Positions 60,451-64,000 of a stretch of DNA of 64,000 nt are shown here, one piece after another; positions within the stretch are counted from its first letter, which is position 1, and each line of letters begins with the position of its first letter. The notes beneath the pieces are model-generated. The model saw nothing but the letters and a program-made list of their open reading frames with translations. It did no database searches and had not been told where the DNA came from. This DNA comes from Oscillospiraceae bacterium (GTDB lineage Bacteria; Bacillota; Clostridia; Oscillospirales; CAG-272). A program made the translations under genes and the position numbers. Location of the stretch: positions 1,373,520 to 1,437,519 of the forward strand of contig CP091718.1 of the NCBI GenBank assembly GCA_022009675.1. Direction: 5' to 3'.

Positions 60451-60648
60451 GATATTCCTCCTATCGGTTCTCCGGGCGGTGTCCGCCGCACGGAACCATT
60501 GGATTTCACGCATATTATACCGCATTCCGGTCGCTTTGTCAACGAAAAACCGCAAAGCTGCGGGGCGTTGCAGGGGCAGGGAAGGGAGGCGTCGGGGCTT
60601 CCTGAATGAATTTTTTGGAAGCACGCTAAAAAAATATCGCAAAGACAC

Positions 60649-60677: not shown

Positions 60678-60822
60678 GGAGACGTCCCTGCGGCGCGATT
60701 GTGCTTTTCGCGAAAAAAAGACGCCGCAGACTGCCCCGGCGGGGTTCCTGCGTGCGAGACGGACTGCCGCCCCCTGTGAATTGCCATGATGAATCCGTGT
60801 GAGGCTGATAAAGGAGTATCCT

Positions 60823-61519
60823 ATGATTGGTTTTTATAATTATACCGTGTACCTGACGTATTTCAGTCTGATCGTGTCCGGCGTGGGACTGTACCAGGCT
60901 GCCAACGGCAGACCGCTGGTCGCCATTTTTTGCCTGATGGTGTCCGGACTGTGCGATATGTTCGACGGAAAAATCGCACGCACCCGACATAAGAGCACCG
61001 AAATGGAGCGGAATTTCGGCATCCAACTGGATTCCCTTGCGGATATTGTGTGCTTTGGTGTCCTGCCTGCCGTCATCGGCAAGAGCTTTTTCGATGAATT
61101 CGTGGAGAGAAAGAACATACTCATGCCCCCGCCCCGCGCTGACTGCCAGCCATGTGGTGGTATGCAGCCTCGGTTGCCTGCTCATCCTGTGCGCGCTGAT
61201 CCGCCTCGCTTACTTCAACGTCACGGAGGAGGAGCGGCAGAAGAATACCGACGAGCGCCGCACTTCCTATATCGGTCTGCCCGTGACCTCCGCATCGCTG
61301 ATCTTCCCGCTGGTGTATGCGCTGACCTACACGCTGGCGCGCGTCCTGCCGGATCACGTGATACTGTATTTCTATGCGCTGGTCATGCTGGTGGTGGCGG
61401 TTTGCTTTGTCGCCCCCTTCTCGGTCCGCAAGCCGCACGGTAAGGCGCTGATTTTCCTCAGCTTTGTCGGCGTGGCGGAAATCGCCTATCTTATCTGCGT
61501 GATCCGGTTCCTGCGGTAA
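60823..61519 (+). CDS. pssA: CDP-diacylglycerol--serine O-phosphatidyltransferase (frame break in C-runs near 61126-61135)
   Basis: CDP-alcohol transferase motif DMFDGKIAR...GIQLDSLADIVCFG. ORFs 60799..61443 and 61037..61519 join at ...ILMPP|ALTASHVVV...IRLAYFNV. Confidence 0.85.
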
Positions 61520-61539
61520 GCCCCCGAGCCGGATGCCGG

Positions 61540-61585
61540 CACCGCCCTCCTGCGGTAAGCGGGAGGGCGGTGTTGATTTATTTTG
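61540..61585 (+). terminator. Rho-independent terminator
   Basis: caccgccctcc / loop / ggagggcggtg followed by ttgatttatttt. Confidence 0.7.
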
Positions 61586-61640
61586 GGGGATTTTCCGCGT
61601 CCGACGCCCTCCGTATTCAGACAAAATATGCATTTGCGGG

Positions 61641-61669
61641 TTGACTTTCCCGGACGCATATGCTATAAT
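61641..61669 (+). promoter_or_regulatory. Sigma-70 promoter of the large lipoprotein gene
   Basis: TTGACT, 17-nt spacer, TATAAT (61664-61669). Confidence 0.6.
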
Positions 61670-61765
61670 GAAGTCATGAAACGCATTGCCGCCGGATTCC
61701 CGGCACGGCATCTACCGGATACAACCGCCATGCAGACGGCAAGGTCTGCACGGAAAGGAGTTACT

Positions 61766-64000
61766 ATGAACCATCGCGCCCCTGCCAACCGCCGCTTGTT
61801 TTTTTGCCGATCCGCCTTTGCTTGCTTGTGCTGACTGTCGCAGTGTTTGCAGGTGGGGCGGTGTTTTTGTCTGCCTGCCGGACACCCGGGCAAGCTCCCG
61901 ACTCTCCGTCCGCTACCGCCACGGAAACGGAAACCGTCACAACTGAGATGTCCGGCGTTACGGAGCCGGGGAATTCCGAAACGGAAACCGAGCCGGAATC
62001 GGGTGCCGGCGAGGAGACCGCCCATCTGCACGCCTACGGCGACTGGGCAATCCTGCGAGCCCCCACCTGTACGGGGGCTGGCGAACGCACGCACACCTGC
62101 ACCGTCTGCGGGCACGTTGAGACCGAATCCGTTCCCGCAACCGGGCACACCTCGGTCGAGGATGCCGCCGTTCCGGCAAGCTGTACCGAGGACGGCAAGA
62201 CTGCCGGGGCGCACTGCGCCGTGTGCGGCGACGTGCTGACCGCGCAGGAAACCGTTCCGGCGCTGGGACACCTGTCCGAAAAAACAGAAGCCGTACTGCC
62301 CACCTGCACGCAGAACGGGCATGGCACCGGGGTTCGTTGCGGTCGTTGCGGGCTTGTGCTGGCGGAGCCTCCGGAGATTCCGGCAACCGGGCATCAGCCC
62401 GAGACTGTACCCGGAAAAACTGCCCACCTGTACCGAGGCGGGGCTGACGGACGGGGCTATTTGCTCGGTCTGCGGCACCGTGCTGACCGCACAGACCGAA
62501 CTGCCCGCTGCCGGACATCACCCGGACGGAGAAGCATCCTGCACGCAGGAGGTACACTGCACGGTATGCGGTGCGCATCTGGCGGACAAACTCCCGCACA
62601 CGCCGACTGCCATCCCGACGCAGGAGCCAACCTGCACGCAGGACGGGCACACGGGCGGCACCGCCTGCGCGGTCTGCGGGGAGATCCTGACACAGCCCAC
62701 TGTCACGCCTGCCACGGGGCACGCCTTCGGTCCTGATGCGACCTGCACGGAACCGCAGGTCTGTCTGATCTGCGGGGAGATCATCTCGCCCGCATCGGGA
62801 CACTTCCCGGCTGTTGAGCCGGGAAAAGCGCCGACCTGTACCGAGCCGGGTATTTCGGACTATATCCGATGTGCCGTATGCGGTGAGGTTCTGCAGGAGC
62901 GGACCGTCCTTCCGGCGACCGGGCACACTGCTGTGGATACGCCCGAAATCGCACCGACCTGTACCGAACCGGGATACCGGGGCGGCACGCACTGCGCGAC
63001 CTGCGGCACGGTTCTGACTGCTCCCACGCGTGTAATGCCGACCGGACACCGGTTGGTGTATGACCGTCCGGTTGCTGCTACCTGCACAGAGGACGGGCTG
63101 ACGGACGGCTTCCACTGCGACGTCTGCGGCGTTGTCACGCAGCCGCAGCAACGCATTCCTGCCACCGGTCACTCGCCGGTGACCGACCGATCCGTCCCGC
63201 CGACCTGTACGGCGGCAGGGCGAACCGAGGGCTCGCATTGCACCGTCTGCAACGCCGTGCTTGTCCCGCAGGTCGAGATCCCGGCTGTCGGACACACCTT
63301 CGGAGCCTGCCCCGAAACCCCGCCGACCTGTACGCGCCCGGGCTATGAAGCCGGCGAGCACTGCCTTGTTTGCGGGTATGAGCGCACTGTCCGACCTGTC
63401 ATTCCCGCGACCGGGCACACGCCCGTGACCGATCCCGCTGTTGCCCCGACCGCCGATGACTACGGATGGACGCAGGGTTCGCACTGCGCGGTATGCGGTA
63501 CGGTGCTTGTGGCACAGTCACGCCTGCCCAAAACGGACACCGTCCTGCATCCGGGCGATCCGGAACAGTTCCGGGGTGTCATGATTGTGTCGGTTTATGG
63601 AACAGGCAAGAAAAATACCGATGCCGCCGCTTCGCACGGCTTTGTCCAGTTGTACAACAGTACCGACCGGGACATCCGGCTTGCCGGTGCGGCGCTGTAC
63701 TACCGCAAGGACAGCGGTGGCTATACCGAGTTGCTCTTCCCGGAGGATGCCGTGATTCCTGCCGGGGGCTACTACCTCGTGCGTGCCGCATCGCCCAAGG
63801 GATATAATACCGCCGGTGCCCTCATCAACGTGCTGTATGCCGACCTGGATTGGAATGTCTTTATCGACAACAAGGAGGTACACCTTGTTCTGGCGCCTTC
63901 CGGCTGGGATATTTACCCGACAGAGGATATTACCGCGCTGACCGATGCCGTGTCGGTGTTTGTCTCCTCCGAGAAGGAAACGTATGCCTCGGTCTTTGCC
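61766..64000 (+). CDS. Large lipoprotein with 13 tandem Cys-rich (C..CxxCG..PATGH) modules and a C-terminal lamin-tail-like domain; 3' end lies beyond the window; two frame breaks
   Basis: RBS plus ATG 61766, reading MNHRAPANRRLFF|LPIRLCLLVLTVAVFAGGAVFLSAC (lipobox; break in the T7 run 61799-61805). The frame of ORF 61804..62736 holds until the A5 run 62415-62419. I then translated 62420-64000 by hand as a stop-free frame. That stretch is not in the ORF track because it has no stop inside the window. Confidence 0.8.

Follow-up and report, generated by a model that had tools for sequence, protein, structure and literature searches.

In a stretch of 64,000 nucleotides from an Oscillospiraceae bacterium (contig CP091718.1 of assembly GCA_022009675.1, positions 1,373,520 to 1,437,519 of the forward strand; hereafter designated the window, whose numbering is used throughout, positions elsewhere in the host genome being prefixed C1), the plus-strand segment from 61766 to about 65791 is a single gene for a lipoprotein of 1340 residues, which reaches 1.8 kb beyond the window end. 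The window thus holds the 5′ two-thirds of this gene of an uncultured gut or rumen bacterium of the class Clostridia. The product consists, in this order, of a lipoprotein signal, an acidic linker, 13 repeat units each built around one His and three Cys residues (hereafter His/Cys3 units), a lamin-tail domain (LTD), a CHB_HEX_C/Fn3_assoc region, and a CotH kinase domain. Taken as a whole, the region is probably a fragmented gene for a surface lipoprotein in which a zinc-pinned rod would carry an LTD–CotH head, the breaks in its reading frame being errors of the assembly.

A lipoprotein gene with three frame breaks

The original prediction, which was made from the window sequence, had started from a frame free of stop codons running to the window end. 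Indeed, the plus-strand frame is open from 62240 to that end, and it enters the list of open reading frames (ORFs), as 62321..64000 (560 residues, open at the 3′ end), solely if open ends are allowed. Both peptides that were quoted from this frame are present, and so is the 508-residue ORF on the minus strand (61958..63484). The latter was rejected as a gene and is regarded as a shadow of the GC-rich coding strand, because conservation and purifying selection sit on the plus frame.

The proposal that one gene encodes an exported lipoprotein was borne out. The ATG at 61766 is preceded, 6–11 nucleotides upstream, by AAGGAG, and the signal peptide with its lipobox L-S-A-C extends over 61766..61876 (Cys codon, 61874-61876). 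The N-terminus, MNHRAPANRRLF(L)PIRLCLLVLTVAVFAGGAVFLSAC, has a positively charged n-region, a hydrophobic h-region, and a lipobox, as judged by these features; cut at a T7 run (61799-61805), the signal peptide is picked up in the frame of 61804, where ...AVFAGGAVFLSAC forms the lipobox. The lipobox is kept in two orthologs (on contigs L004 and L005) and two distant homologs (L006 and L007), and the host genome encodes both Lgt (107 bits) and LspA (145 bits). The product is an exported, membrane-anchored surface lipoprotein. Its lipid-anchored Cys is followed in translation by an acidic low-complexity linker of about 50 residues rich in Thr, Glu, Ser, and Pro (61877..62028, plus strand).

Behind the linker, all on the plus strand, units 1–3 and the His of unit 4 (62392) lie at 62029..62418 in the frame of 61804 (three domains by the module hidden Markov model (HMM), 165.5 bits), up to a second break in an A5 run (62415..62419; A4 in the intact relative described below). 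Units 4–13 follow at 62420..63541 in the frame of 62420 (10 HMM domains, 545 bits), then the LTD at 63572..63889 (Pfam PF00932 and Foldseek), and the genome sequence shows the same gene to continue over 63890..64000 to the window end. Reading on in the genome, we found a third frame break at about 64052, CHB_HEX_C_1/Fn3_assoc at about 64180-64470 and CotH at about 64670-65705 (both by Pfam, plus strand, on the window scale), and a stop codon at about 65790-65792. Thus, the two homopolymer breaks that had been named in the original prediction are both there, the third lies beyond the window, and the suggested extension past the window led to the full gene and to a CotH head that its author could not see.

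A search with the joined protein retrieved an intact protein, P0001, of 1340 residues and 99% identity; its 90% cluster comprises 1474 member sequences, and the 15 members listed are 1336–1340 residues long and come from independent assemblies. The contig that encodes P0001 (L003, assembled from short reads) shares 98.7% identity with the window across 9.2 kb and has the genes in the same order, the lipoprotein gene being intact. Pairwise alignment of the window with L003 revealed nine indel events, eight being extra bases in the window and most lying in homopolymer runs. Three of the nine break the lipoprotein gene (T7 versus T5, +2; A5 versus A4, +1; one extra base at 64052), and removal of the four extra bases gave a product of 1340 residues that departs from P0001 at 10 positions. 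The remaining six are located outside the gene, among them those at 60611, 60713, 61126, 61580 (intergenic), and about 67720 beyond the window; at least one, that at 61126 (C5 versus C4), splits the gene for a CDP-alcohol phosphatidyltransferase into the overlapping ORFs 60799..61443 and 61037..61519. The ratio of nonsynonymous to synonymous substitution rates against L003, L004, and L005 was 0.13–0.24, alike for array and head.

As the gene is intact in a relative of 98.7% identity, the cluster members are of full length, and six further indels fall within the same 9.2 kb, comparison of the sequences argues that the three interruptions of the frame most likely stem from indel errors of homopolymer type in the assembly and not from biology. 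The host assembly is a single contig of 1.78 Mb with a marker completeness of only 59%, which fits this reading, and as a whole it appears to be rich in indel errors. Near the contig end, a run of 100 N (C1:1781425-1781524) may be a circularisation or scaffolding spacer.

Thirteen units with a period of 41 residues

Counting of CxxC[GN] motifs in the array gave 13, at successive CxxC-to-CxxC spacings of 39, 41, 41, 32, 36, 32, 36, 41, 41, 41, 41, and 41 residues. The predicted copy number was therefore right, as were the two shortened copies, units 5 (from 62519) and 7 (from 62720), and the loss of the first Cys from the last; the module length of about 30 residues gives way to a full-unit period of 41. 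The quartet of His, Cys, and CxxC is complete in 12 of the 13 units, unit 13 (from 63416) having Ala in place of its first Cys (Cys1) and no GH after it. Over 26 diverse sequences of five units each, the His and the three Cys are invariant or nearly so. A 41-column module profile made from the 13 units scored 165 and 545 bits against the two frame pieces of the window, and the repeat pattern is far beyond chance. At the DNA level, no 123-nucleotide repeat was detected by Tandem Repeats Finder, which indicates that the units are old, have diverged at the DNA level, and are individually maintained; a recent expansion or an assembly artefact was accordingly rejected as their source.

In the family consensus, GHTxVxDxAVxPTCTExGLTEGxHCSVCxxVLxAQExIPAxGH, a His stands at either end, and the original prediction had assigned to each unit the His after its Cys residues. 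Unit 1, however, has a His of its own 13 residues ahead of Cys1 (HAYGDW...PTC), and no GH comes after unit 13. Moreover, among 41 arrays from 30 proteins, an upstream His accompanies the first unit in 83% and a downstream His the last unit in 44%, the chance level being about 26%. From this bias, each His most likely pairs with the three Cys after it and not with those before, so that the unit is best written H-x11-12-C-x10-C-x2-C. As the His comes right after the last strand of the previous unit, the putative metal site would be located at the joint between units, in agreement with the published prediction of sites at subdomain interfaces in the protein considered next.

A very large family and its published precedent

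Among the chain sequences of the PDB, the sole significant match to the profile was 9qa6_A, the IgA protease of Thomasclavelia ramosa (E=5.8e-5 with the one-unit profile, three stretches; 6.2e-7 with the five-unit profile, residues 853-986 and 1100-1143). The matches fall on the regions called ZBD1/ZBD2 in one of two recent studies (PLoS Pathog 2025, PMC12237041) and CTD2/CTD4 in the other (PNAS 2025, PMC12415215). Tetrahedral Cys/His zinc sites were predicted there where small β-sheets meet, and no structural homologue of these regions was found in either study (PMC12237041, PMC12415215). In one of them, small-angle X-ray scattering (SAXS) showed CTD2 to be a fully extended rod, and a metal-associated "periscope" domain was proposed (PMC12237041/PMC12415215).

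The two proteins share the motif ...TCTxxG...CxxC...PAxGH, proposed ligands that are exclusively Cys and His, small β-sheets arranged end to end, and the lack of a structural homologue in the PDB; in addition, both are extracellular and cell-anchored, with the array between the anchor and an enzymatic head. In the T. ramosa protein, however, there are two or three irregular subdomains with mostly 2His+2Cys sites, placed C-terminal of the enzyme, an M64 protease, and anchored by a sortase, whereas the lipoprotein has 13 regular 41-residue units of 1His+3Cys, placed N-terminal of an LTD–CotH head and anchored by lipid. The unit belongs to a very large family that is uncurated and was first described in 2025, only by prediction and SAXS.

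Scans of the three frame pieces with Pfam and NCBIfam yielded no model for the unit, the only matches being sub-threshold ones to zinc-ribbon, rubredoxin, and S27e models. Hence, the statement in the original prediction that no described family could be named holds for these databases and fails for the literature; the family turns out to be described, and its function is only proposed. The Pfam labels carried by relatives (EGF_LMN_ATRN, DUF4907, and RNase_II_C_S1) were rejected, since they derive from cumulative scores without any significant single stretch.

A search of 1.84 billion representative proteins with the module profile, as had been suggested together with a genome survey, gave 40,867 matches at E<=1e-3, 22,139 at E<=1e-10, and 6,651 at E<=1e-30; a single protein contained up to 80 matched stretches. 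In the word-indexed search, saturation was reached, with 7,952 of the 8,000 scored candidates being significant. Among the matches, the unit was seen together with cohesin, SLH, Listeria-Bacteroides repeats, choline-binding repeats, Fn3, and further partners. When species genomes of the same class were sampled evenly, 59 of 300 genomes, belonging to 42 of 178 genera, carried the unit.

The host genome itself contains two more large surface-protein genes with the unit, C1:1284558-1288460 (6 units) and C1:1291089-1294355 (22 units), which also encode Listeria-Bacteroides-type and choline-/glucan-binding-like repeats and contain a Trp variant of the unit (GHSWNEGEITTSPTCENAGVKTYTCTVCN...). These two genes flank a second Lgt paralog (C1:1288572-1289204, 57.9 bits). 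Elsewhere, a 625-residue frame (C1:40810-42684, minus strand) is dense in Cys/His motifs (CxxC, HxxxC, GH...) and matched the unit profile only four times, each weakly; its product may be an extracellular protein of another, less regular Cys/His-rich kind.

Predicted fold and metal chemistry of the units

For structure prediction, which had also been proposed in the original prediction, units 8–12 (62795-63445) were aligned without gaps with 25 five-unit segments of diverse family members. The AlphaFold2 model of these units consists of strands only and is confident, with a mean pLDDT (predicted local distance difference test) of 93.1; its predicted TM-score (pTM) of 0.50 is low, as expected for an elongated chain of many beads. 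Foldseek comparison of the five-unit model with the PDB gave no match at E<=1e-3, with TM-scores of at most 0.16. From the low pTM and the published SAXS data, the array would be elongated.

In this respect, the array is reminiscent of the G5-E rods of SasG and Aap, the staphylococcal periscope proteins, in which elongated single-layer β-sheet repeats, likewise lacking a hydrophobic core of the classical kind, hold a head away from the wall; the same analogy has been drawn for the IgA protease (PNAS, PMC12415215). The similarity is, however, non-significant (E>0.1, TM<=0.16), SasG/Aap and invasin rods occurring only among the insignificant Foldseek matches (3tiq, 4fun, and 8deo for the SasG/Aap type). 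Furthermore, zinc bridges two Aap molecules via His/Asp/Glu sites, whereas the staple proposed here would be an intramolecular Cys3His site.

Judging by the conserved residues, the units are probably small metal-binding His/Cys3 beads, and zinc is presumably the ion held by the quartet. This retains the metal-binding part of the original prediction, which had offered zinc-ribbon-like modules or disulfide knots. A classical zinc ribbon was rejected because each unit has one CxxC knuckle, one further Cys, and one His, because Zn_Ribbon_TF, DZR, and RUBY_RBDX of Pfam remain below cut-off, and because Foldseek detected no match to a zinc-ribbon fold; disulfide knots are considered unlikely, on grounds given in the Discussion.

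The LTD–CotH head

The lamin-tail-like domain that had been proposed to follow the modules was found at the expected place. Pfam LTD (PF00932) scored 32.3 bits (E=1.4e-7), just short of the cut-off of 34.3, over profile positions 6-95 of 109, and the precomputed Pfam annotation of the protein collection assigns PF00932 to P0001 and the orthologs. Although the AlphaFold2 model of this domain is of moderate confidence (pLDDT 66), its top 15 Foldseek matches in the PDB are all tail domains of lamin A/C, B1, or B2, with a probability of 1.00, target-normalised TM-scores of mostly 0.5–0.67, and E=1e-4 to 1e-3. The modelled fold thereby confirms the assignment as a lamin tail, an Ig-like β-sandwich. 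The following region scored 28.6 bits with CHB_HEX_C_1 (cut-off 22) and matched Fn3_assoc, and beyond the window end the CotH domain (PF08757) scored 109.5 bits (cut-off 23.8) over profile positions 3-320 of 322.

Two motifs, DWPxNNxKxWR and LLDxD, show no variation among six homologs, and we take the first to resemble the catalytic loop of a kinase and the second an Asp that binds metal. In B. subtilis CotH, the catalytic and metal-binding Asp residues are D228 and D251. Nguyen et al. reportedly identified Bacillus CotH as a spore-coat Ser/Thr kinase in 2016. From these motifs, the head of the lipoprotein may possess kinase activity. Bacillus CotH, an atypical Ser/Thr kinase in spore-coat assembly (PMC7821199), shares the Pfam CotH domain with the lipoprotein; it is, however, made up of a single domain and works within the mother cell, where its targets are the coat proteins CotB and CotG, whereas the lipoprotein is exported, has multiple domains, and is too diverged for a sequence match to a solved CotH. 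Closer in layout are the exported LTD–Fn3–CotH proteins of Clostridia, such as the cellulosomal Cthe_0239 of C. thermocellum (LTD, LTD, Fn3, CotH; PMC6083626), which have the same head cassette but are anchored by a dockerin or by a lipobox with a short or low-complexity linker, no His/Cys3 array being reported for them. In the host genome, there are two more CotH-domain genes, three in all: C1:597139-599062 (minus strand), a 1254-residue frame that also has an LTD-like stretch with 67% DNA identity to 63766-63960, and C1:1090697-1091233 (plus strand).

The orthologs on L004 (75% identity) and L005 (65%), both from metagenome-assembled genomes (MAGs) of uncultured Clostridia type, have 13 and 12 units, respectively. 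The homologs on L006 and L007 (38% identity, rumen Clostridia MAGs) are lipoproteins with LTD, CHB_HEX_C/Fn3_assoc, and a CotH head and have no units; at the position of the array, they have low-complexity linkers rich in Pro, Thr, and Glu, or almost nothing. The array is thus interchangeable with unstructured linkers, as expected of a spacer. Among the matches seen, the joint occurrence of array and LTD–CotH head is confined to orthologs of at least 65% identity, and on the sequences compared, the His/Cys3 array with a CotH head is a new combination of a narrow lineage. The homolog at L006:2578-6540 combines the CHB_HEX_C/Fn3_assoc–CotH cassette with a C-terminal RCC1-repeat propeller, and a second LTD–CotH lipoprotein gene lies directly downstream to form a tandem pair, as it does on L007.

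Upstream signals

The CDP-alcohol phosphatidyltransferase gene upstream is closed by a hairpin with a T-run that resembles an intrinsic terminator (61537..61585, plus strand; 17-pair stem with 12 G-C pairs), and the gene order is that of the intact relative L003. The hairpin is followed at 61641..61669 (plus strand) by a sigma-70-like promoter, TTGACT-17-TATAAT, which matches at 11 of 12 positions, has an extended TG, and is the sole promoter-like site within 61400-61900, 0.3 being expected. Placed downstream of the neighbour's terminator, this candidate promoter would provide the lipoprotein gene with transcription of its own.

Discussion

A structural model can be proposed in which each 41-residue unit would be a tiny β-sheet, and the His behind the last strand of one unit and the three Cys of the next would most likely together bind one structural Zn(II). 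With every joint stapled by zinc in this way, the array would become a stiff rod of tens of nanometres. By analogy with the periscope proteins, the rod would probably serve as a stalk that lifts the LTD, CHB_HEX_C/Fn3_assoc, and CotH head from the membrane through and past the cell wall.

Several points weigh against this proposal. The zinc sites are predictions, both here and across the family, and so are the published ones, since neither the crystal nor the cryo-EM maps of the IgA protease resolved its ZBDs (PMC12237041/PMC12415215); the link to that enzyme rests on profile E-values of 1e-5 to 1e-7, which are convincing yet not overwhelming. The CotH part gave no match to a solved CotH among PDB sequences, either by phmmer or with a six-sequence profile, being too diverged. 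The role of a pure spacer is argued from position and analogy, with a binding role as its rival. Finally, the frame breaks could be genuine, the gene being a pseudogene in this strain or a phase-variable one that slippage in the T and A runs turns on and off; in favor of this, two of the three breaks fall in homopolymer runs close to the 5′ end, the classic layout of a contingency locus. Three breaks at once, however, do not make a switch, the third lies outside any long run, and the T5 and A4 runs of the intact form are short for slippage. In addition, the listed cluster members are of full length, the six indels outside the gene fall mostly in homopolymer runs, at least one of them splitting the phosphatidyltransferase gene and one being intergenic, and the low completeness of the one-contig genome also speaks against it. 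Genuine breaks are thus hardly credible, and assembly errors are preferred.

Regarding the chemistry of the units, their richness in Cys, their export, the spurious cumulative matches of a Pfam EGF model to family members, and the fact that metal in the family is a prediction might point to extracellular beads knotted by disulfides, EGF-like or knottin-like, in place of metal sites. Such modules have an even number of Cys, typically six, whereas each unit has three, together with an equally invariant His, and an EGF-like or disulfide-knot module was rejected on this count. No DsbB, VKOR, or DsbA-like gene was found in the host genome, control genomes having responded as expected, and the hosts live anaerobically in the gut or rumen. 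Indeed, the IgA protease itself contains no disulfides in experimental or predicted structures despite its 24 Cys (PMC12237041/PMC12415215). The odd Cys count, the invariant His, the absence of Dsb/VKOR genes, and the anaerobic hosts thus favor metal sites, and disulfide beads are very unlikely. Less improbable, and still unlikely, is the view that the array acts mainly as a binding surface (an adhesin, or a repeat capturing glycans, host molecules, or metal) and not as a passive spacer. Family members bear many different heads or none that is recognisable, some have up to 80 units, which exceeds the apparent need for spacing, and periscope-type domains of other proteins can bind ligands too. 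Against this, exposed positions vary freely among the units, the H/C/G/T framework alone being conserved; low-complexity linkers stand in for the array in the distant homologs; and the published analysis predicts fully coordinated metal sites, leaving no free coordination position. A stalk function is therefore preferred.

If the array is a zinc-stapled rod, it is conceivable, though at present a long shot, that it works as an environmental switch, stiff and extended in the anoxic, zinc-replete lumen and collapsing when the host withholds zinc or when there are oxidants, because each joint would need a shared metal ion held by thiolates that survive only without oxygen. Collapse would then retract or expose the extracellular CotH kinase, and phosphorylation outside the wall would take place under permissive conditions only.

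The "hidden frame" that first drew attention to this locus is, as argued above, most likely a product of indel errors in an error-rich assembly, and the 13-unit instance is in itself of moderate interest. With its regular build, modest size, and defined head, its array would suit experiments on zinc binding, rod formation, and rod length. It is the family as a whole that merits attention: the repeat, which has no database model or solved structure and is mentioned in the literature for one enzyme only, in 2025, is one of the most frequent components of surface proteins in Clostridia of the gut and rumen, with tens of thousands of clusters and about one-fifth of the sampled species carrying it. 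The lipoprotein described here adds to this family the prediction that extracellular CotH-type kinases can sit on His/Cys3 stalks.

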